Virus record (IMG/VR): IMGVR_UViG_3300028833_000066
Length of the DNA stretch: 64,000 nt
Origin: a virus
Taxonomy: Duplodnaviria; Caudoviricetes
Strand: one strand, 5' to 3'
Shown: piece by piece, positions 11,271 through 53,904 of the stretch
How the letters are laid out: each line of letters opens with the position of its first letter
Numbering within the stretch: position 1 is the stretch's first letter
The notes under the pieces: generated by a model
Told to the model about the DNA's origin: nothing
Databases searched by the model: none
Seen by the model: only the letters and a program-made list of their open reading frames with translations
Position numbers and translations under genes: made by a program

Positions 11271-12092
11271 TCAAATGCTTGACCAATGAAATTTATAGGC
11301 GGTCCGATTTGGTATATCACATACTTTACTAATATTAGCATTATATGCTTTTGCCGCTCGACCGGTCTCTTTTAGCCATTTTACTGCCGCTGATATTGTT
11401 GGAAAAGTTTTATTTTCTTCAATACAACGAATAGCTAAATTTTTATTATCAATATAATTATCTATATTGAAATTATCATAATCCTAAATCTTACACCAGA
11501 TATACCCGCCAGCCGTCTTTGCTTCGCCATTAACAGCACTCCATAGTTGGGTTCTACCAATATGTACTGCTTCTTGAGCTTCCTTTAATGAAGAAAATTC
11601 TTCAATAATTTCACCTGTATTTCTATCAATTTGATAGACTGGTTGATATTGTCCTTGGCCAGATAAATCATTAGCTTCTAAAATTTTCAATACTGTCTAA
11701 ATTGAGCACCCAAATTGTCGTGCCGTTTCAGAAGCATTCTTCTTACCAGTAGAATTAAAGAATGCTAAGATTTCATTTGAATTAAATTTTTCTACTCCAT
11801 CTCCGCCAAAAGAACAATTATATCCTTTTGGAGTAACACAATCAAAATACTGTATCCAATATTTTTCTCGCTCATTTAAATTATCATTTTCAATCTTTTC
11901 TATTACTTCTATATGGAAATGTTCAAATCCATATTTTCGCATCGAACGATAGAGCGGATAATCGGTATCTAATTTTTCTGGATGATGACCTTTCCATAAA
12001 TGATGTTGCCATCTATACTTTATTTCATTTCGGGTCTATCCAATGTAAATTTTATCATTTACATCATTTACAATTTTATAAATATATCCCAT
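11271..12092 (-). CDS. GIY-YIG homing endonuclease with NUMOD1-like repeats (3 in-frame TAG)
   Basis: MGYIYKIVNDVNDKIYIG*TRN; TAGs at 12036, 11697 and 11484 join the track fragments into one 273-aa frame ending at TGA. Confidence 0.88.
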
Positions 12093-22797: not shown

Positions 22798-24108
22798 TTA
22801 AGCCACAATATACATTACTACAAATAATGCCGCCAAGAAATACATTAGAACTGGAATTTCCTTAAACTTGCCGCGAACAGCTTTTAAGAGAACATAAGAA
22901 ATTAGTCCAAATCCAATACCATCACTAATTGAATAAGAGAACGGCATCATTGCGATTGTTAAGAATGCTGGAATAGCAATTTCCATATCGTTCCAATCAA
23001 TATACTTGACATTCTTCATCATAAAGATACCAACAATAATTAGAGCAGGAGCAGTTGCTGCGGATGGAACAATACCAGCAATAGGAGCAAATAAACAAGC
23101 TAGTGCAAATAGTAATCCAGTTACTACAGAAGCAAGACCAGTACGAGCACCAGCGGCAACACCAGTAGAACTTTCAACAAATGTAGTAACGGTACTTGTA
23201 CCAAGTAGTGATCCACCAACGGTAGCCAGAGCATCAGCAGTAAGAGCACGAGACATATCCTTGCTCTTCATATTACCGTTTTCATCTAACATATCACAGC
23301 CGGCCGCACATCCAGTAAGAGTGCCAACAGTATCAAAGCAATCACACATACATAGGGTTAAAATAGATGTAATTAGCGGGAAAATACCGAGGGCGGTTAG
23401 TCCAGTAAATGAAAGCTGGAAGAATGTTGGTGCAAGTGAGAGATTTTCAAAATTTAAAGATACAGCTGTATTAGTTACACCAAGAGGAATACCAATTAGG
23501 GTAGTGGCAATGATAGAATAGAGAATTGCACCCCGCACTTTAAATACAAGTAGGATAGCAGTAATAGCTAGGCCAATTAGGGTGAGTAATGGTGCTCCCG
23601 ATGTAATTGAGCCAAGGTCAAGTAGATTGTTGTTTGCGGTAACAATGCCAGCATTGATAAGACCAATTAAGGCAATAAAGAGACCAATGCCTACACTAAT
23701 AGCACGCTTTAACTGGGCTGGAATAGCTTCAATAATCTTATGACGAAGTGGTGAAAGAGTAATAAGAAGGAAAACGCAGCCGCTGATAAATGTAATAGCT
23801 AGACACTGCTGCCATGTATAGCCAATCTTCATACATAGAGTATAAGTGAATAAAGCATTAATACCAAGGCCAGGAGCCTGTGCGAATGGTACATTAGCCA
23901 TAAAGGCAGTTAGCAATGTACCTACTGCCGCACTAATACAAGTAGCTAGAGTTAGAGCAGTATAATCCATTCCGGTTACGCCTAGAATGGATGGATTAAC
24001 AAAGATAATATAGGCCATTGCCATAAAGGTTACTAGGCCGCCAATAACCTCGCGGCCAAATGTAGAACCACGTTCAGTGATATGAAAATGCTTATCTAAA
24101 AATTTCAT
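22798..24108 (-). CDS. NCS2 permease, AzgA/PbuG-like purine transporter
   Basis: TFMAMAYIIFVNP, APGLG, FDTVGTL, FVESSTGVAAGARTGL, MPFSYSI. Confidence 0.92.
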   Translation of the reverse strand: MKFLDKHFHITERGSTFGREVIGGLVTFMAMAYIIFVNPSILGVTGMDYTALTLATCISAAVGTLLTAFMANVPFAQAPGLGINALFTYTLCMKIGYTWQQCLAITFISGCVFLLITLSPLRHKIIEAIPAQLKRAISVGIGLFIALIGLINAGIVTANNNLLDLGSITSGAPLLTLIGLAITAILLVFKVRGAILYSIIATTLIGIPLGVTNTAVSLNFENLSLAPTFFQLSFTGLTALGIFPLITSILTLCMCDCFDTVGTLTGCAAGCDMLDENGNMKSKDMSRALTADALATVGGSLLGTSTVTTFVESSTGVAAGARTGLASVVTGLLFALACLFAPIAGIVPSAATAPALIIVGIFMMKNVKYIDWNDMEIAIPAFLTIAMMPFSYSISDGIGFGLISYVLLKAVRGKFKEIPVLMYFLAALFVVMYIVA

Positions 24109-25382
24109 AGATTAGTCTCCTTTTTATTCTTTAGAATTAGATTTAGAATAATACCTACAAACATAGCGAGAGCAGTAGTACCGATACTGATAATCCCAAA
24201 ATTACATACAACACCAGAAACACCAATGGTTAAAATTGAGGCGATAATAGTTACAACCTTATTATCGTTAAGATCAAGATTACTATCTTTAATAGTCCTT
24301 ATACCAGAAAGAGTGATGTATCCATAAAGAATAGCCGCACAGCCGCCAAAAATAGCTGAAGGTAATGATACAAGCAAAGCCTGTAGCGGGCCGAAGAAAG
24401 CTGCTACACCCATAATAATTGCCGCTAGTGTAATTACATACTTAGAGCAAATTTTACTGAAGCCAGTTGTGCCTACACTTTCGCCATAAGAAGTATTAGG
24501 AATAGAGCCAATTAGAGTGCCGAAAGCAGTAGCAATACCGTCACCAATTAGAGTATGACCTACGCCTGGATTTTGAGTTAGATCAGTACCAATAACTGCG
24601 CTTAAAGCCTTATGGTCTGAAATATGCTCACATAGGCATACGAGAGATAGAGGCGCAAATAGTAGTAGAATCTGTGGCATTAATCCCCAATCAAAGTTCG
24701 CAAAGTCAAGATGGAAGAATGCGAAGTCTGGCATCTGGAAAATCTGGAGATTACGGAAAGGTTCAAAATTAACAATTGGAATACCGCAGAGTGTAAGAAT
24801 TACGGATAGCCCATATACAATGAAAATTGAAAATAGGAATGGTAGATTTTTAACAAATCCTTTTCCATAGTGAGAAATTAGTGCAGTGATAATTAGAGTT
24901 AGCATACCAAGCCCAAATCCAATTAGACTGTATTCGCCATTTACTTGGAAATAGGTTGGTAGGAAAGTGGCTAGGTTTAGACCAATTACCATAACAACTG
25001 GACCAATAACATATGGCGGCAGAAGCTTATTAATCCAAGCTGTTCCACACTTGTTAATTACTAGACCAACGATACAATAGATAAGGCATACAATAACGCC
25101 ACCGATTAGAACCGCTGTAAAGTTAGGTGCTGTTCCAAGTGTCAAGGCGCCAATTACTGCGGCAACAAATCCACCTGAAGAACTGATAAACATAGGGCTT
25201 TGGCCGCGAGTACATAGCTGATAAATCAAAGTACCAATTGCTGCGCCCACCATTGCCGGGGCAATAGGAACGCCGCAAATTGAAGGGATAAGAACAGTAG
25301 CAACGAAACAAGCAATAACCTGCTGGAATGCGGCAACAATTAGCCGCTTAAATGGAAGTCTATCATTAATATTATAAAGCAT
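24105..25382 (-). CDS. NCS2 permease, UraA/PyrP-like uracil-xanthine transporter
   Basis: FVATVLIP, GPVVMVIGL, EHISD, GDG, PNTSYGE. Confidence 0.9.
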   Translation of the reverse strand: MLYNINDRLPFKRLIVAAFQQVIACFVATVLIPSICGVPIAPAMVGAAIGTLIYQLCTRGQSPMFISSSGGFVAAVIGALTLGTAPNFTAVLIGGVIVCLIYCIVGLVINKCGTAWINKLLPPYVIGPVVMVIGLNLATFLPTYFQVNGEYSLIGFGLGMLTLIITALISHYGKGFVKNLPFLFSIFIVYGLSVILTLCGIPIVNFEPFRNLQIFQMPDFAFFHLDFANFDWGLMPQILLLFAPLSLVCLCEHISDHKALSAVIGTDLTQNPGVGHTLIGDGIATAFGTLIGSIPNTSYGESVGTTGFSKICSKYVITLAAIIMGVAAFFGPLQALLVSLPSAIFGGCAAILYGYITLSGIRTIKDSNLDLNDNKVVTIIASILTIGVSGVVCNFGIISIGTTALAMFVGIILNLILKNKKETNL

Positions 25383-35541: not shown

Positions 35542-36780
35542 TTAAACGTGATACTTTAGAAGAAAACTATTGCTTACAGCTTTAAAAGACTTAGAACCAT
35601 CAATAGAGCGGAATACAATACCTTCACGAGGCAAATTATCCAAACAAGATTTGCCTTCTGCATAAGCAAGAATAGCATCTACATTTTCAAATTGATTAAT
35701 TTTCATTTTACGATTAAGTACAGGTACGCATTCAATTCCATATGGATCTAGAATATCAATCATTTCAAGAGTTCCTACACGACCGCGAGATGAGAAAATT
35801 AGGTTAAATGCTAGAAAATCATGCTCACCGCAGAGAGAGTAATCTCGCTGCTGAATGCCGTCGCCAAAAGTTTCGCCTTGAATAGTAATCCATTCTTCAT
35901 TAGGATAAGCCGCCATCAAATTAGATAGCACTTTGAACATGTCATATTGCTTAGCCATTTCCCAATATACATTGGTATCATAATAGCATTCTTTGCTTTC
36001 TTCTCCAAAGCATACATTACGGGAACAAACATAGAAAGATTTGCGCCCAAATTTGCCACGCTTCATAGAGAAAGTAGTGCTAGTTCCATCAATCTTCTCG
36101 GTGGCAATCCAGTCACCATCATCATTTAGAATCCAAGGCATATTTTGCACTCGTTCCTCATCAGTCTTTTTTACCCAAGCCGGCCAGCCATTTTTCTTAT
36201 CCTTCTTTTTACCGAAGAAGAAGAACATTACTTTGCGGCCAAAATTACGTTTCATTATCCACTTAGCCCAAGATTTCTTGAAGATTTCAGGATGACGAGC
36301 GGCCATTTTTTTATACTTATCTACAGTAGGAGCTTTACGCTGGTTATCCTCTTCATCAGCGTAAGTAATACCAAGCTGCTTGGTTAGAAAACGAGATTCA
36401 TTTTCTATATTATGATTGTGCCCTTCATTATCTACGATATAAGGAGTATTATATCCTTCAATATGAAGTGCAGGAGCAATGTGCCAACCAAAATCTTCAG
36501 CGTGCATAAGCAAACCCTGTGAAATCGTTTTGCACATCTTCAAGGTTTTAACCTTGTAATTACGCTTTTCAAGAAATGCAAAGCACTCCTTATCAGAGGG
36601 TACGCGAGAGTCAATTTCAAAATAAATCGCGGGATCGCCAACTTTAAATTGGCCTTTCTGTACAATAACTCGCCATCCACCAACAATAGCATGCTCAACC
36701 CGATCATATCCGGGGATAGGTTCAATACCGTCAATAATTACCACGTAAGCGAGCTGCCGAATACCATCTTTATCAAGCAT
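35542..36780 (-). CDS. ATP-dependent RNA ligase (Rnl2/DRB0094-like)
   Basis: N-terminal OB-like domain, KTDEERVQN, TEKIDGTS, QGE, AFN, EGIV, FKAVSN. Confidence 0.88.
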   Translation of the reverse strand: MLDKDGIRQLAYVVIIDGIEPIPGYDRVEHAIVGGWRVIVQKGQFKVGDPAIYFEIDSRVPSDKECFAFLEKRNYKVKTLKMCKTISQGLLMHAEDFGWHIAPALHIEGYNTPYIVDNEGHNHNIENESRFLTKQLGITYADEEDNQRKAPTVDKYKKMAARHPEIFKKSWAKWIMKRNFGRKVMFFFFGKKKDKKNGWPAWVKKTDEERVQNMPWILNDDGDWIATEKIDGTSTTFSMKRGKFGRKSFYVCSRNVCFGEESKECYYDTNVYWEMAKQYDMFKVLSNLMAAYPNEEWITIQGETFGDGIQQRDYSLCGEHDFLAFNLIFSSRGRVGTLEMIDILDPYGIECVPVLNRKMKINQFENVDAILAYAEGKSCLDNLPREGIVFRSIDGSKSFKAVSNSFLLKYHV

Positions 36781-37297: not shown

Positions 37298-37526
37298 CTG
37301 GAATCTTAGCCTCCGAACTCATTTGATAATGAAAGAACTCAGTATGACTTCCAACATCATAATGCCGCCAACCATCACTATCCCAAGTGCGAGTATAATA
37401 ACTCTTGTAATTATGTTCATCAAGAAACTTCTTGATAACAATAGCAACATCAATCTTGTTGGCACAATCAGCGATAGGACGCCATATACCACGACTATTC
37501 TCAAAATACAGAGTCATATTCATCAT
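37275..37526 (-). CDS. Hypothetical phage protein
   Basis: YYTRTW, DVGSHTEFF. Confidence 0.6.
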   Translation of the reverse strand: MMNMTLYFENSRGIWRPIADCANKIDVAIVIKKFLDEHNYKSYYTRTWDSDGWRHYDVGSHTEFFHYQMSSEAKIPDGNKSSG

Positions 37527-38374
37527 CCTTTCATCTTACAGTAATAAACAACAGTCTGTTTTACATCGTTGTATTCTTTGTGTTCTTTGACTTTCATACG
37601 CATTACACACTTAAAGCCAACTTCAAGATTCTTGGAAGCAGTAATCCAAACATATTCATTACCATCGCTGTCCTCCATAATATGGACGCGACTTTCGCCG
37701 AAGCGACCATCAACAGGAACGTTCTTTTTAATGGTTACTTCACGTTCAAGCCAATCACCTACTTCGCCCTGATATTCACTCTTACTCAGATCATCAAGCA
37801 GTTCATGAACGATTTTGCGAACCTCAGCTTCATCCCGCATAGTAAGGTCTTCTGGGTCGTCGGAATTGTGAATATCTTCCCACTTGAGGACAATAGGAGT
37901 AATTTCAGCGGGAAGATTAACAATTTCAAGCTTAGAAGGGCAGAACCAGCCGAACAGAAGGTTGAACCGAGCACGGCAGGGATTGGTTTCGTGAGCCCAA
38001 TCATTAAGAATGGTGCTATCACCCTTGAAAAGAGTGATGAAACCAGCCTCACCAAAACCAAAGGCGTTGCGAGCGGCAAACTTTACACGCCGTTCTTCAA
38101 CTTTTACTGCTTTGGCCGCAGCACGTTTTTCAGCCGCACGATCAAGAGCTTCACGCTGCTTGTCGGTATACCAACGGACTTCCTTGATTTCATAGCCGCG
38201 GCCGCCGCAAGCAAAGCAACGAGTACCGTCCATTGGGTTATAGGAGTAATGACCGGAGCCGCCGCATCGAGGACACAGACCTTTAACCCGCACATAAAGC
38301 TTTTTAGCATCGCCCTCGTGAGTGTAAGGCTCACCCATAATTTCCATATTCTCATAAGATTTAGCGACCGCCAT
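37523..38374 (-). CDS. Zn-finger plus OB-fold-like hypothetical protein
   Basis: CPRCGGSG..CFACGG; C-terminal KVKEHKEYNDVKQT. Confidence 0.65.
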   Translation of the reverse strand: MAVAKSYENMEIMGEPYTHEGDAKKLYVRVKGLCPRCGGSGHYSYNPMDGTRCFACGGRGYEIKEVRWYTDKQREALDRAAEKRAAAKAVKVEERRVKFAARNAFGFGEAGFITLFKGDSTILNDWAHETNPCRARFNLLFGWFCPSKLEIVNLPAEITPIVLKWEDIHNSDDPEDLTMRDEAEVRKIVHELLDDLSKSEYQGEVGDWLEREVTIKKNVPVDGRFGESRVHIMEDSDGNEYVWITASKNLEVGFKCVMRMKVKEHKEYNDVKQTVVYYCKMKG

Positions 38375-38452: not shown

Positions 38453-39049
38453 TTAGGAGGTGAAATTTTTATGATGGTCATTATTTAACATAACCGGTAA
38501 TTGACCTAATTGGTTCCAACGATTATGAATATCTACAATAATTGTATCTATATTTACAGGATAACAATTATGTGAATCTAAACCAACATGATAAATAAAG
38601 GGATTGTCTGGAAATAACCAATTGGAGGTTTGATGAGTGTGCCCATGTAATGAAATGATATGTTGAGAAAAATGTTTATCATCAAAATTAGCAGTAAGAA
38701 CTGGGTAGTGGCAACAAAAAAATTTTAGTTTGCCGAACTTTATAAGTTCGCTGGTTTGTTTAATATTAGTTACCTTCCCAGTTGCGTAGATGTCGCTAAG
38801 TTTGTTATCTGTATCGTGATTGCCTTGAATTAAATGGATAGTCCCATTAAGTCGTTTGAGAATATTAACATCATAATTTCCCATTAATACGTCGCCCAGA
38901 TGATAAACAATGTCATTTTCTTTAACCACTTCATTCCATCGTTCTACTAGCGCTTCATTCATTTCGTCTGCGGAAGTAAAACTGCGAGGTTCGTAAAGGA
39001 ATGATTGTTCATGAAAGAAATGTGTATCACTAGTGAAGAAAATATTCAT
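38453..39049 (-). CDS. Calcineurin-like metallophosphoesterase
   Basis: SDTHF, HLGD, GNHD, HYP, HGHTH. Confidence 0.9.
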   Translation of the reverse strand: MNIFFTSDTHFFHEQSFLYEPRSFTSADEMNEALVERWNEVVKENDIVYHLGDVLMGNYDVNILKRLNGTIHLIQGNHDTDNKLSDIYATGKVTNIKQTSELIKFGKLKFFCCHYPVLTANFDDKHFSQHIISLHGHTHQTSNWLFPDNPFIYHVGLDSHNCYPVNIDTIIVDIHNRWNQLGQLPVMLNNDHHKNFTS

Positions 39050-39531
39050 TTTGGTTCACCATTAATCCACCAAACACCAACGGCTCGGGGATCTTCCAGT
39101 TTATACGCATCATTTACTGGCGGACAAAATTTATCATACATTTCTTTCACAATTTTTTCTGGCACACGAGCGCGGCCAGTGCGTTTATTATTACGATAGA
39201 GGCACGTCTGAAGAGAAGGAGAACATACTACATAAACAATGCGATAATCAGTAATATACTTATCAATAGCATTTGTAAGCTTCTTACGTGACCATGTATT
39301 AAGATGAGTAGCATCTGCTACTACCGTATCAAAATAACGTAAATGATGCACCAAAGTATTTACAAATTCTTTAAATACCTCCGGTTCATGGTCAAAATAA
39401 TTATCATCATCATCAAGCATCATAAAGCGAATATTATCACGGGATACAGTGACATCGGCATGAAGAAAATTATGAGCAAAATAAGTTTTTCCAGAGCCAG
39501 GAATACCGCACATGATATATAGAGTAGACAT
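39046..39531 (-). CDS. Polynucleotide kinase-like P-loop protein (AAA_33)
   Basis: MCGIPGSGKT, SRDNIR, DATHL, RNNKR..RARVP; start reassigned to 39531. Confidence 0.85.
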   Translation of the reverse strand: MSTLYIMCGIPGSGKTYFAHNFLHADVTVSRDNIRFMMLDDDDNYFDHEPEVFKEFVNTLVHHLRYFDTVVADATHLNTWSRKKLTNAIDKYITDYRIVYVVCSPSLQTCLYRNNKRTGRARVPEKIVKEMYDKFCPPVNDAYKLEDPRAVGVWWINGEPK

Positions 39532-40346
39532 TATATTCTCCTTAAAATAAATTGAGCATGGGTATGGTCTGTGGTAGGTAAGATAATATCTTTCCACTTT
39601 TCCGCGTAATATGGTAATAGATAATGAGTTTCAAATAAAATTTGATAATAAGGACCAGTTAATTGGAACAAATCAAACAAAGTCCATGAGAAATAATCTT
39701 CTTTCAACTCTCGCTCCCAATCATTATCTTTCCATTGATATTTCATTAAAAAATGAAGAAATCCTTTTTTCGTGAGAATTGAAGTATCATTGGCTGTTTC
39801 AAATTCTTCAATATATTGTTCATCAATATTGAATTTTTTAATAATGTCAGTCATACTTTTATAAGTAAACTTACAGTCTGGGCCATCAAAATACATATCA
39901 CGAATGGTAATGTATTTAGGTTTAAGCTCAGTAATGAGTTGCTTAATTGTTTCCTTTCCTTCAGGTGAAGAAGAAAATACTTCATGCAGTACGCAAGAAA
40001 AATTAATACAAATCTCATAATTACAAAATGTATACTTAGCCATACGAAGCATATCAGTGAATGAATCTTCAGTAAATTCAGAGGTACGATGTGTGCGGAA
40101 AAATTTAATATTGTTATGTTTAAGCAAATTTTCATTATGAGCTTTCCACGCCATATCAATTAATTCATCGTTAATATCAAAACCCCAAAATTCAATTTCA
40201 GGAAACATAACAGAGAGTGTTCGGATCATTGCTCCATCTGCGCAGCCAAAATCAATTACACATTTCGCGCCAATAATCTTATCCATGAAAAACGCTTTGT
40301 CTCACATTGATTTTGCCATTTCTTGAGTATATTTATTCAGATCCAT
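39531..40346 (-). CDS. Class I SAM-dependent methyltransferase, in-frame TGA at codon 15
   Basis: VIDFGCADG, GFDIN, SCVLHEV; RBS AAGGAG at the 40346 start; TGA at 40302. Confidence 0.7.
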
Positions 40347-41477: not shown

Positions 41478-42113
41478 ATACTCAGGCCACACTCGGGTGG
41501 TCTGTACTTAGACTATTTACCTTCGGCCTTGCCGCTCAAACATTCCCACCGCTCGCGTCCTCAATAGTCCTAGGTAGATAAACATCTACTCATTATAATA
41601 TCAATAGGATTTGTTTTGCCGCGTACGATCGGCTGGCCGAGTATTAAGTCTAATAGCCGCTCAAGACTCCTATTGATTTTTAATAAAGGCTCAAAGTACT
41701 TACTTCTTCGTTCGTGAAGAGGCCATTAGGCGAGCCTTTGTATGCCCCGAAGGTACGCTTGCTCGTCAGCAGAGGCGTCGGCAGCTCATATATTGTGGCG
41801 TAAAACCCCTAACTAGCCATCATCGCGTCCAGCTGGACCACATGTTTTCTGCCTTGAACCCGTGCTTTCAGGTAGGCAAGGATTATAATCTTGTTTAGGG
41901 AACATCCCATGGTCAAGAGAAACCATAGATGGAGAATCATAATCTAGAAGACAGTACCCTTACGGCGTGCTGTTGATTCTCCTTCTGGTGGACCCGGGGC
42001 ATTTCACCCAGCCCATAGACGGTTTTTAGACTCGCTGGTCATGGCTTACCGAGGTACTGACGGCCGATCGCCCTCTGTCGCGCCAAGACTGTGCTCATTA
42101 AACACAACCCTAA

Positions 42114-42392: not shown

Positions 42393-42803
42393 TGGTGCGG
42401 GTAGCCGGACTTGAACCGGCACGCCCAGAGGGCAACAGATTTTCTTACTACTCTATGTTACCATAGCCGCTTTCGCGTTGTAGTCTGGGCTATGTCTTCA
42501 CCTTATCTTACGACTTAGGTGGCTGGTATATAGTCTCTACACATTTATAAATATGCGACGTGCCGAGGTACTGCCCCTCTATTTTTGTATTACTTACTTA
42601 CATATACCTATCTGCAGTTTATATGTTTTCAGAGATAAGTTATTATCTGCTATCTTATACTAGACACGCCATATTTAATTTAGCTCGGCGTTATCCCATA
42701 AGGACTTTCACCGAATTAGCCAGCATTCACTCAGAAAGTTTCCTATTCTGGTGCTCTTTGTTTTACAAAAGTCTGTGGCGTCTGCCTATTCCGCCATACC
42801 CGC
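42393..42803 (-). tRNA. tRNA-Leu(UAA) split by a group I intron (exons 42769-42803 and 42393-42443)
   Basis: Joined exons give ACAGA-CTT^AAAA-TCTGT, Leu-type D arm, long variable arm, CCA. Confidence 0.9.
42444..42768 (-). mobile_element. Group I intron in tRNA-Leu(UAA)
   Basis: P AATTCGGTGAAA, Q AACGCCGAGC, R GTAGAGACTA, S AAGACATAGCCC; exon ends in U, intron ends in G. Confidence 0.9.
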
Positions 42804-42823
42804 ATATACGGCTTTCGCCGCAA

Positions 42824-45142: not shown

Positions 45143-45324
45143 ATACAAGAAGCGTATTTACGCTTCTAAATACGACTGTGTTATTACACCAAATTACTCT
45201 TACCTTTTATCCACCGCACATCATACTTATAGGACAATTCCTGTAGCCCATAATACATTTCGCACGAATGGAGGCATGTAAACTCTTTAGCTTATGGCTA
45301 CTTTCAAGCCTACAGTGTCGCGAG

Positions 45325-45711
45325 CTAGGGCGCTGGGACTCGAACCCAGACTACCTCCTTCAGAGGGATATAACGGTTTTCTTACTACTCCATATTACTA
45401 TGGCCGCCATAATGCGTTGTAGTCTGGACTATGTTTTTACCTTGCCATAATGGTTTAGGTATGTCCTATATAGTCTCTACACGTTTATAAATAATTGGCT
45501 GTTTATCAAACTCCACTTAGCTACAGCGTTATACGAACTCGCCACTATCAAATTGGCTTCCACAGTCTGTCGTAGCACCAATTATTTAATTTAGCTCGGC
45601 GTTGTCCTAGTAGGATATTCGCCGAATTAGGGACAATTCACACTAGAACTTTCGTATCTAGGTGTCCAATTATTTTAAGAGACCGGTGTTCTGCCATTGA
45701 ACTACGCCCCA
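45325..45711 (-). tRNA. Amber suppressor tRNA(CUA), Gln-like acceptor, split by a group I intron (exons 45678-45711 and 45325-45380)
   Basis: Joined exons give CCGGT-CTCT^AAA-ACCGT; acceptor TGGGGCG/CGCCCTA with G73; 23-nt variable region. Confidence 0.82.
45381..45677 (-). mobile_element. Group I intron in suppressor tRNA anticodon
   Basis: P AATTCGGCGAA, Q AACGCCGAGC, R GTAGAGACTA, S AAACATAGTCC; 3' end GAGTAGTAAG shared with the Leu intron. Confidence 0.9.
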
Positions 45712-46289: not shown

Positions 46290-46478
46290 AGCCGCCGATA
46301 GGACTTGAACCTACAACCTGCGCATTACTGGAGCTGAGTGTGAGTAACGAACTCACATATCTTCGCCTAATTAATTCGTCAATTAATTAGTTCTCATGCG
46401 GTCTTTTCCCTGTGATTCGGGTGTTTTACCTTAAACTAACTCAGCAAGTGCGCTGCTCTACCATTGAGCCACGACGGC
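46290..46478 (-). tRNA. tRNA-Thr(UGU) interrupted at 34/35 by a tRNA-shaped insert (exons 46446-46478 and 46290-46328)
   Basis: Joined halves give a canonical cloverleaf with GCGCA-CTT^GTAA-TGCGC. Confidence 0.85.
46329..46445 (-). ncRNA. Nested tRNA-like element (G1 to CCA)
   Basis: Acceptor GCTGAGT/ACTCAGC-T-CCA, D arm, T arm GTGAG-TTCGTTA-CTCAC; expanded middle. Confidence 0.8.
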
Positions 46479-46554: not shown

Positions 46555-46718
46555 AATGCGGATGAGGATTTGCACCTCATATGACATACGTCTTTTCGCT
46601 CTTCACTTTACTAATATTCCTACCTATTAGTGGCTGTCAGCGATTTTTAATCTCGGCCATGAATTAAGTTTTTAGCGTAGTCTCACGACGCAGCGTTTAC
46701 CTATTCCGCCACCGCATT
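46555..46718 (-). ncRNA. tRNA-like RNA with about 85 nt in place of the anticodon loop
   Basis: AATGCGG/CCGCATT, Leu-type D arm, T arm TGAGG-TGCAAAT-CCTCA. Confidence 0.7.
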
Positions 46719-47285: not shown

Positions 47286-47837
47286 TTATTTTTCTAAATA
47301 ATTAGAAATGTCAATCATACCATTTTCAATTTCCCAATGATGATTTGGGCATAAACCAATTAAATTGTTATCATTATTAATTTCATCAATAGTTGCGCTG
47401 TCAGGAAAAGTAGAAATTCCTTTTATATGATGAACTTCTATATGTTTATTGTATCCACAGACTGCACAAGCTGCATTTGGATGATTCTTTAAATATTGTA
47501 ATCTAGATAATTCTCGTATTCGACTATTAACCTGATAAGAACGCAATTCTTTTAGTTCACCATATGTTTTATTTTTCCAATCAACATTGGTTGGATTACA
47601 TTCTTCGCAGTATTTTCTTCTATAAAATAGAGCATATCCTTCACCAATTAGTTTCCCGCATTTCTGACAGAATACCTATTTTTTAGGACGCTGACGATTA
47701 TTGTATGTAGCAGCGCAGCTATGATTACAAAATTTTTTCCTTTTAACACTGCTAACTGATTCATTCGCTTGACAGAAAATTGGTTGTTTGCAGTTTAAAC
47801 ATAAATTGGGATTTTGATTATATTCTTCGCGTGTCAT
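47286..47837 (-). CDS. HNH endonuclease with Zn-finger N-terminus (1 in-frame TAG)
   Basis: KKFCNHSCAATYNN; CAVCGY..IEVHHI...NLIGLCPNHH; TAG at 47676. Confidence 0.82.
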
Positions 47838-47920
47838 CCTATCACTCCTATGATAAAATAATAAGAGCCGATGTAGGAGCATCTTTATCTCACTGGTTAA
47901 TTACTCCAGTGCTACCTCAG

Positions 47921-49876: not shown

Positions 49877-50474
49877 AAGGAGATATTAGGTTAGTAAACT
49901 CTTGCGACCTTCGCCGTACTCAAGTAATTCTTCAATCATATTCAGCCACTACAGAACTAAAGGCTGAGCCATAGGTAGCGACCCTATAACTTCTTTAGTC
50001 CGCTTTCGCCATGTGTAGGAAGGATTGACTACCTTCAAGTTTCAGCCAAACCATTCAGCAATAATATATAAGAATGAACTAATTCTTTTAACATATTACT
50101 TGCCCGTCGAATTGGCCTACTCCCACCTTAAACCTCTCTTATATGCCATTTCTGGCTTTCATCAACGTCGATAGCTACTTATGGTATTTCCAGAGTTTGT
50201 ATTGGCTACCACCCCAATACCTTATCTGGATTCGGCTCGTCTATTCAACAAGCTTTCTATTATGTAGCCGAGAGGAAGAGTGCTTTTAATTGCGAACACC
50301 CAAGCGCCTATCCTTAGTATTTGGAGTTTCTCCTTTATCACCTAACATTACTGTTTCGGCGGCTGTTTAACCAAAAGTATCCTTCGGGCAGTGACAGCTA
50401 CTATACGGATAGCCCAAGCTGTGTGGTTAGCACATCTTCACTTGGTTCAAAATTTACTAACCTAATATCTCCTT
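49877..50474 (-). ncRNA. Large structured ncRNA (about 600 nt; ROOL/GOLLD class candidate)
   Basis: Ends form a 22-bp perfect stem (AAGGAGATATTAGGTTAGTAAA); own TTGACT-17-TATAAT promoter; no credible ORF. Confidence 0.7.
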
Positions 50475-50520: not shown

Positions 50521-50636
50521 ATATTTAGGTCTGGATTTTCACCAAACATGAGCTAAAGGCACCTTACGTCCTTCACAAGTATCGGATCAAGTGGCTCTTA
50601 CCTTATAAGCGTCTACATATTCCGCCACTAAATATT
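50521..50636 (-). ncRNA. tRNA-like RNA with non-canonical anticodon region
   Basis: TATTTAG/CTAAATA, Leu-type D arm, T arm TTTGG-TGAAAAT-CCAGA. Confidence 0.65.
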
Positions 50637-50716: not shown

Positions 50717-51158
50717 TCAAAGTGCGGCCGAAACCGCAATAATCACTTACTTTCGTTGTCTTTTTATTATAGCGTGCTGCTAAATGACTAAGCCACATAT
50801 CACGTCCTCAATAATGATTCATCGTGCCGGTGGTAGTTTAGTGAGAATCCATCCTTACCGCACACTAAGTGTTTTTATCGCCAGTTTGTGGTTCCCACAT
50901 AACCCCCCAAGACTCGACTTTACACTTCATTCTGGCAAAGCATAAGCGTCATCATCTATCACATACTCTAGTTATGTGATGCTATTTTAGTATCACTTTT
51001 TTGGCATAGCTGCCTCACCACAGCTGTCGTCGCTCACGAGACGTATAAGGATTATGGAGTATAGTCTGAGAAGTTCATCTACAGACACTCCTCCCCTTAT
51101 ACCGCCGGACTTCAACCGGCCAGTCATATCCTGTCAATTCAGGCTTTATGTGGTTGAA

Positions 51159-53090: not shown

Positions 53091-53162
53091 TACCTCATTC
53101 CGGGGATGCTCCGGACCCTCGTGCTTGAAGGGCACGCGACTTAACTGACCGTCCCATGAGGC
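53091..53162 (-). tRNA. Atypical tRNA-Glu(UUC)-like
   Basis: GCCTCAT/ATGAGGT; loop CCTTCAA (C33); T loop AGCATCC. Confidence 0.6.
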
Positions 53163-53904
53163 ATAACTAGCGGTTTGATAACTCAGCCGCAACTGAGTAG
53201 GCTACACTGTGTGACGAGAGCGGTAGATGAAGCCGCTTCCTTTGCCAGTTTAGGGAGCTACCCTAAGAGCTGCCCGGGACTACCAATCCATTTTCCCTGC
53301 CTTCTCGTTTTTCACCTATTTATGGGTGCAGTTACTACTTCTGCTTCTCCCGCCCTTTTCGTGTAACTACTACTCGGGGCCGGTAAGGACGTGGCTCGTT
53401 TCCTTCCATCCCATGTGCTTACTTTGCTCTTCTTTTATTACACGCCGAGCAATCTGGTATATGCACTCGAAACCATATAGTTTGCGTATTGGCTGTTCTT
53501 CAAACTCCATTTAACCCATTCTTCCTAGCATGCGACCTAGAGCTCTTTGGCCTTAGCTTTTCAAAGCTTACACGCTAATTACGGCATTTGGGCACCTTGT
53601 AGACCATTATTGAGCGTCTTACTTTCTCTTTTTGTTACGCAGTTTTCCTCAGCGTATGTGTTCCATCCCATTTTTTGGATTTCTCCCCTCAATTTGGTGA
53701 GGATGCCGAAGAGCTTAGTTTCACACATAAAGTCCTGTCATTGCTCTATCACTCTGCCTGCCTACCAGAGTTGCAGCAGTTTGCCCCTGCTTGCCGAGAC
53801 CGCATATTTATATACCGCGAACGATGTGCGGTTACGCTCTCCGGTGGCCGCCTTTGAGCGAGGCTAGACTCTAAGTGCATCAGGGTTTATGATACCCAAG
53901 TGCC

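Follow-up and report, generated by a model that had tools for sequence, protein, structure and literature searches.

A tRNA-shaped insert in the anticodon of a phage tRNA-Thr(UGU) gene: a candidate intron with the ends of a mature tRNA

The tRNA-Thr(UGU) gene of a rumen-type phage is interrupted within its anticodon by an element that is itself shaped like a tRNA, and we propose that this element is an intron that would be removed through its resemblance to a pre-tRNA. The window analysed here, a stretch of 64,000 nucleotides from the virus record IMGVR_UViG_3300028833_000066 (Caudoviricetes), is part of an AT-rich rumen-type phage genome and carries a tRNA island of 15 kb on its minus strand, on which all window features given below also lie. 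At 46290-46478 two tRNA-Thr halves surround a 117-nt insert whose ends lie flush at tRNA position 1 and CCA, and sequence and coordinates match those of an earlier note that had described a tRNA-shaped element inside this anticodon from the sequence alone. The 5' exon (46446-46478) extends from G1 to U34 and has intact alleles in the phage records L318 and L079; the insert (46329-46445) extends from position 1 to U73-CCA at the 34/35 junction; and the 3' exon (46290-46328) extends from G35 to U73, its own CCA not being encoded. Removal of 46329-46445 does restore a canonical tRNA-Thr(UGU), of 73 nt, with stems of 7, 4, 5 and 5 bp and an ARAGORN call. The unspliced gene is missed by ARAGORN and matches the Rfam tRNA family at 50 bits. 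A G repeated at both junctions of the window copy permits a reading at either 34/35 or 35/36, but the homologous inserts of L138 and L287 begin with C, which fixes the insertion site at 34/35. A tRNA search found no second Thr(UGU) in the window, where Thr(CGU) and Thr(GGU) are also present and where ACA accounts for 298 of the 877 Thr codons (about a third) of the long ORFs.

Independent assemblies, covarying pairs and empty-site alleles establish the insert as a real insertion and no artefact of assembly. L003, a phage assembled separately and differing in its tRNA set, carries an insert identical to that of the window, and diverged copies with the same two junctions and compensatory changes are found in L011, L017, L133, L138 and L287. 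Three syntenic relatives (L079-L081) have an intact Thr(UGU) at the same locus, and the intact allele of L318 differs from the predicted spliced product by 3 bases; these intact alleles indicate that insertion was not accompanied by target duplication. In phage contigs from gut metagenomes and in a contig of a MAG (L091, L114, L128 and L306), the same site of tRNA-Thr(UGU) is taken by a second, unrelated insert of 129 nt. The 190-bp interrupted gene is 87-93% identical between phages with unrelated neighbourhoods that do not align, and as such travels as a unit. The element and the four relatives tried had no match in cultured phage or plasmid records.

The presence in the insert of its own 7-bp acceptor stem, D arm, T arm and CCA, as the note had read it, is confirmed by the fold and by covariation in the RNA family described below. 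Folded alone, the insert has a z-score of -4.4, with 0 of 200 shuffles equally stable, and its only Rfam matches are to the generic tRNA family (35.8 bits), with the anticodon arm replaced. The 5' strand of the inner acceptor stem (46439-46445) pairs with 46333-46339 in 100% of 16 family members, with compensatory changes at 7 of 7 pairs, and the inner D arm (46423-46436) has invariant U8, A14 and G19-equivalent residues. The anticodon arm is replaced by a non-decoding 3-bp stem with a conserved GAAUC-N-N-A loop (46408-46421), in which the outer pair covaries between C-G, A-U and U-A and the loop motif is invariant; the 16-member alignment places after it (46357-46407) a conserved AAGAC linker, a variable hairpin (46364-46400) and a conserved AAGAU linker. 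Instead of the 5-bp anticodon stem and 7-nt loop of a decoding tRNA, the inner element thus has a 3-bp stem, an 8-nt loop and an extra hairpin. The inner T arm (46340-46356) has a covarying stem, and the inner acceptor 3' strand (46329-46339) ends in the discriminator U73 (46332) and an encoded CCA (46329-46331). At the elbow the G19- and C56-equivalents are invariant, A58 is absent from the window copy and U54 is lost in L017 and L133; the inner T loop is decayed in the clade of the window insert, where the CCA is nonetheless retained. ViennaRNA prefers a shifted pairing for the full window precursor, giving the inner acceptor a probability of 0.04, and gives it 0.66-0.95 in the precursors of five homologues. 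The conserved loop could form a 3-bp pseudoknot with the last linker, for which the three pairs are invariant and show no covariation. Complementarity across both window junctions was considered as a guide sequence, a reading we rejected as the complementarity is not conserved in homologues.

The insert belongs to a conserved tRNA-like RNA family, defined by its free-standing relatives, for which Rfam has no entry of its own, the insert and these relatives alike matching only generic tRNA. A search with the insert's internal motif as query, independent of CCA and exons, found the same RNA free-standing in the tRNA arrays of other phages, and the family now comprises 16 distinct members, 6 nested and 10 free (at least 10 distinct free copies). 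Their acceptor stem is 7 bp long and variable in sequence, and it is accompanied by a D arm, a 3-bp stem whose loop carries the invariant GAAUC motif, two invariant linkers with a hairpin of variable sequence between them, and a T arm; position 73 is nearly always U. Across the alignment 98.6% of cells pair, compared with about 40% in slid controls, and two-sided changes occur in 17 of 23 pairs; a covariance model scores the members, from which it was built, at 88-111 bits and other tRNA-like sequences at 56 bits or less. CCA is encoded in 6/6 nested and 4/10 free copies (one-sided p 0.026, for sequences that are related and not independent). This bias fits both a need for CCA in excision and a mature CCA-bearing RNA as the source of the insert, and the two readings are not exclusive. 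A topology test on the tree of the 16 members does not discriminate between a single nesting event and repeated nesting (p-AU 0.30). As the same RNA family is free-standing in other phages, the RNA released from the tRNA-Thr precursor would probably have a job of its own.

The note had suggested searching related phages for tRNA halves around tRNA-like inserts, and such a survey, using architecture-only patterns followed by in-silico splicing, recovered at least 43 distinct inserts, 44-135 nt long and spread over ten kinds of phage tRNA; the figure is a lower bound and includes some near-copies. The interrupted tRNAs among those listed are Thr, Ile (two anticodons), Leu, Glu, Gln, Asn, Asp, Lys and Pro. 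The searches required CCA, T loops or intact exons, and counts of these features are inflated thereby. Among the 43 listed, the insert starts at tRNA position 1 in all 43 and lies at 34/35 in 23, at 35/36 in 15, at 36/37 in 5 and at 33/34 in none; the base 5' of the insert is U in 39 and G in none, and the G34 tRNAs listed are split at 35/36 in 7 of 7. An acceptor stem and T arm are common to all inserts listed, the D arm and anticodon region being variable or missing, and minimal inserts of 44-45 nt consist of acceptor stem, T arm and CCA only. The 3' end is N73-CCA in 39 of the 43, a form that the search favoured, N73 in 3 and N73-C in 1. In the three CCA-less inserts the 3' end coincides exactly with the usual cleavage site of tRNase Z, and two of them (in Asn and Gln tRNAs, both at 35/36; L307:5462-5602 and 11353-11480) lie beside a CCA-ended insert in the genome G002. 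Imprecise ends in homologues or decaying outer halves, either of which the note would have taken as evidence against an intron, were not seen: the ends are flush, and the exons of ten interrupted Thr(UGU) genes retain 20-21 of 21 stem pairs. Of 19 arrays, 1 also has an uninterrupted gene for the same anticodon, compared with 9.3 expected, and none was found in the complete genomes G002, G003 and G004. L079 also has a tRNA-Pro(UGG) (L079:10929-11062) with a 57-nt tRNA-shaped insert ending in N73-C, and its Thr(UGU) is intact; the Pro(UGG) of the window, unlike that of L079, is uninterrupted.

Judged from comparative sequence evidence, it is likely that the tRNA-Thr is spliced by some route. In the route that we favour, the acceptor stem of the insert stacks on its T arm, a step which covariation shows, and the insert ends in N73-CCA. 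Host RNase P would then cut before insert base 1, leaving a 5' exon that ends in U34-OH, and an endonuclease would cut right after the CCA, leaving a 5'-phosphate on G35. With the exon halves held together by pairing, the anticodon would be resealed by an ATP-dependent 3'-OH/5'-phosphate RNA ligase, most probably one of the phage's own, yielding tRNA-Thr(UGU) together with the excised tRNA-like RNA. The features recognised by bacterial RNase P are the 12-bp stack of acceptor and T stems and, through RCCA pairing, the 3' NCCA; hairpins of this stack and NCCA alone are cleaved, leaving 3'-OH and 5'-phosphate ends (PMC11143913). The corresponding feature of the insert, 7+5 bp of acceptor and T stem, is 100% paired in the 16 family members, with CCA encoded in the window copy, and the acceptor stem, T arm and CCA that make up the 44-45-nt forms match RNase P model substrates (PMC11143913), which we count in favour of the route. 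Only 3 unpaired bases lie upstream of the predicted RNase P site. The second cut is the weakest step of the scheme. Precedents for a precise cut directly after CCA are the tRNase Z of T. maritima (PMC1540738) and RNase E acting on E. coli tRNA-Pro (PMC5291269). Most tRNase Z enzymes cleave after base 73, and neither a tRNase Z-like gene nor an RNase P RNA was found in the phage records searched, many of them fragments; the cut after CCA would thus need a host enzyme. With host RNase P at the 5' end, an after-CCA endonuclease at the 3' end and an ATP-dependent ligase to seal, this particular route is somewhat favoured over its being wrong. A literature search with little coverage of subscription journals found no published demonstration of such splicing.

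The exon ends produced by cuts of the RNase P and after-CCA type would suit ATP-dependent ligases but not RtcB, which was found in 0 of 28 records, many of the records searched being fragments. The candidate sealing enzyme of the window (35542-36780) had been taken for an Rnl2-type ligase; it is instead of the Rnl5 family, having an N-terminal OB-type domain and a nucleotidyltransferase domain without a C-terminal appendage, the arrangement by which that family is defined (PMC4408790), with matches to PF21189 and PF09414, motifs I, IV and V, and NgrRnl as its closest solved relative (E 7e-31). Characterised Rnl5 ligases prefer duplex nicks, and the substrates of phage Rnl5 ligases are uncharted (PMC4408790). 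NgrRnl ligates single-stranded RNA feebly, which makes the role of the window ligase uncertain. An ATP-dependent ligase is present in 14/14 near-complete intron-bearing records (13 checked, G021 inferred), being Rnl5-like in 11 (one inferred) and T4 Rnl1-like in 3. Two relatives with an intact Thr(UGU), G032 and G033, also have the ligase, and as such its co-occurrence with the insert is weak evidence. A divergent clade of Rnl5-like ligases of 430-490 aa (L255, L256, L257, L258, L259, L261, L262, L263 and L264), mostly near or under Pfam cut-offs, is common in tRNA-rich gut and rumen phages. The RNA repair cluster of the window also includes metallophosphoesterase and polynucleotide-kinase-like genes for RNA end healing (38453-39597), which would not be needed if the exon ends already carry 3'-OH and 5'-phosphate, an unannotated 283-aa protein and a weakly matched, possibly Hen1-like methyltransferase (37523-38374 and 39531-40286).

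These healing genes would have a part if a dedicated phage endonuclease specific for the tRNA shape made the cuts instead, with kinase and phosphoesterase healing and ligation to follow. Such an enzyme would account for the precise cut after CCA and for the tolerance of a decayed T loop, and the kinase and phosphoesterase adjoin the ligase here and lie near it in several other carriers. No shared candidate for it was found, however; the 283-aa protein occurs in 6/16 near-complete records and is absent from G002 and G004. Moreover, G002 has inserts that end in CCA alongside others that end at N73, either of which is an end left by normal processing. We consider a dedicated endonuclease unlikely. 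A scheme without rejoining, in which normal processing releases the inner RNA as the selected product and leaves the outer halves behind as a shell, seems to us no less unlikely. The inner RNA family functions shell-free in at least 10 distinct free-standing copies, and the phage copy of Thr(UGU) could be dispensable, as the host presumably supplies one itself. The outer halves nevertheless show no decay across 10 genes with very different inserts, the 44-nt inserts have no cargo to deliver, and many unrelated cargos have the same ends, all of which counts against a discarded shell.

It is highly improbable that the gene is an inert fossil, or the scar of a split-and-replace event, inactivated when a tRNA-like RNA or a cassette entered its anticodon. 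A mature RNA ligated into a break would be expected to have flush 1-to-CCA ends, nested CCA would be explained in the same way, and the 190-bp gene is mobile between unrelated neighbourhoods. The inner RNA has no anticodon loop, though, and cannot replace Thr(UGU), no replacement Thr(UGU) copy was found, and the inner and outer stems are both maintained. The fossil alternative offered by the note is thus largely refuted as the present state of the gene, and stands as a plausible account of its origin: the insert probably arose when a mature tRNA-like RNA, or a DNA copy of one, was joined into an anticodon break. A free-standing HNH endonuclease gene with one in-frame TAG lies nearby (47286-47882), directly downstream of tRNA-Arg(UCU); we considered and rejected a link between it and the insert, as it is absent at the L003 locus despite the same insert there, which also counts against a scar, and lies about 13 kb off in G003. 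A small self-splicing ribozyme with GAAUC, AAGAC and AAGAU as its catalytic core is more doubtful again. These single-stranded motifs are invariant in 16 sequences, but they are also present in the free-standing copies, which have nothing to splice, and are missing from most nested inserts. The note had found no group I or group II core in the insert, and Rfam agrees: there is no match to a group I core (P3-P7), whereas a nearby group I intron is detected, and none to group II (domain V), the ends also being unlike GUGYG...AY. Neither register combines a 5' exon ending in U with an intron ending in G, since at 34/35, the site fixed by L138 and L287, the insert ends in A and at 35/36 the exon ends in G. 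An assembly artefact, refuted by independent assemblies and the compensatory divergence of homologues, can be dismissed.

Several other features of the window were observed. TAG is apparently a sense codon, as minus-strand ORFs of at least 100 aa span 46.4 kb with TAG readthrough, compared with 33.5 kb under table 11 and 36.3 kb with TGA readthrough. A tRNA with a long variable arm and a group I-like intron (45322-45711) would give a CUA-anticodon, amber-reading tRNA on U|...G splicing, and in L079 and L081 the CUA tRNA at roughly this position has no intron. A group I intron (44 bits in Rfam, under the gathering score) splits a tRNA-Leu(UAA) at 34/35 (42394-42804). Two Leu-type tRNA scaffolds (46555-46718 and 50521-50636) carry unrelated cargo in place of the anticodon arm; this cargo differs among L079, L080 and the window, and its loop in L080 resembles the conserved loop of the insert. 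The tRNA island also holds a ROOL RNA (49885-50469), a drum RNA (50864-50957) and a cow-rumen-3-like RNA (41987-42110), and no Rfam family reaches its gathering score in two long stretches poor in ORFs, at about 53160-53900 and 41500-41980. The two xanthine/uracil permease genes that stand in tandem at 22798-25382 are unusual phage cargo.

If the proposed splicing takes place, infected bacteria would splice tRNAs with housekeeping parts, and an RNA framed as a tRNA could be removed scarlessly from another RNA. It would provide a mechanism for the phage tRNA introns that were reported without explanation in 2019, offer a plausible natural substrate for phage Rnl5 ligases (PMC4408790), explain why tRNA finders miss genes in large phages, and point to a novel, precise after-CCA nuclease in gut and rumen bacteria. 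Whether such inserts form a separate class of tRNA intron, outside the self-splicing and EndA types, defined solely by tRNA mimicry, excised by maturation nucleases and sealed by a 3'-OH/5'-phosphate ligase, with the excised intron in the present case a functional member of a previously undescribed tRNA-like RNA family and one gene thus giving two RNAs, we regard as evenly balanced.

The closest described equivalent is among the 'enigmatic' tRNA introns of Lak megaphages, where a Thr(UGU) intron possibly contains a tRNA (Devoto 2019, PMC6784885, Fig. 4 and Table S6); that report proposed no mechanism and defined no class. The note had known of no described equivalent; the Lak case is a precedent, and the note's claim of a new intron type survives in part, the exact ends, the 44-nt minimal form, the intact exons and the single-copy status favouring a distinct class. 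The Lak introns share with the window insert an anticodon-loop position in a phage tRNA, and the one in Thr(UGU) also shares a possible tRNA-like fold with a similarly odd T loop. By our own reading of Table S6, however, the Lak Thr intron lies after the anticodon, has a leader of about 30 nt before the inner fold and no CCA, in contrast to an insert that runs flush from position 1 to CCA at 34/35. Group I introns of bacterial and phage tRNAs occupy the same location, and two lie in the window, but inserts of the present type lack a catalytic core and a terminal G paired with a 5' exon U, and are as short as 44 nt. Archaeal and eukaryotic tRNA introns (EndA or TSEN with RtcB or Trl1) likewise sit in the anticodon loop and depend on proteins for cutting and rejoining, as we infer here. 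They differ from the present inserts, which lie at 34/35 to 36/37, would yield 3'-OH/5'-phosphate ends, occur in records without RtcB and lack a bulge-helix-bulge, as the note had stated: a 4-bp helix flanked by two 3-nt bulges is absent from both predicted folds. In tRNA punctuation, seen in mitochondrial transcripts and in mascRNA and menRNA, a tRNA-shaped unit directs end cuts by RNase P and RNase Z. There the flanks are released, whereas in our model they would be joined to each other. In phage tRNA repair, as by T4 Pnkp-Rnl1 against PrrC, an ATP-dependent ligase seals a 3'-OH/5'-phosphate break. ATP-dependent sealing would be shared, and one subgroup of carriers encodes Rnl1, but here the break would be programmed by the intron and the window enzyme is of the Rnl5 type. 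Relative to the Lak report, what is new is the flush 1-to-CCA design of the insert, and the mechanism, if shown, would be a new route of splicing.
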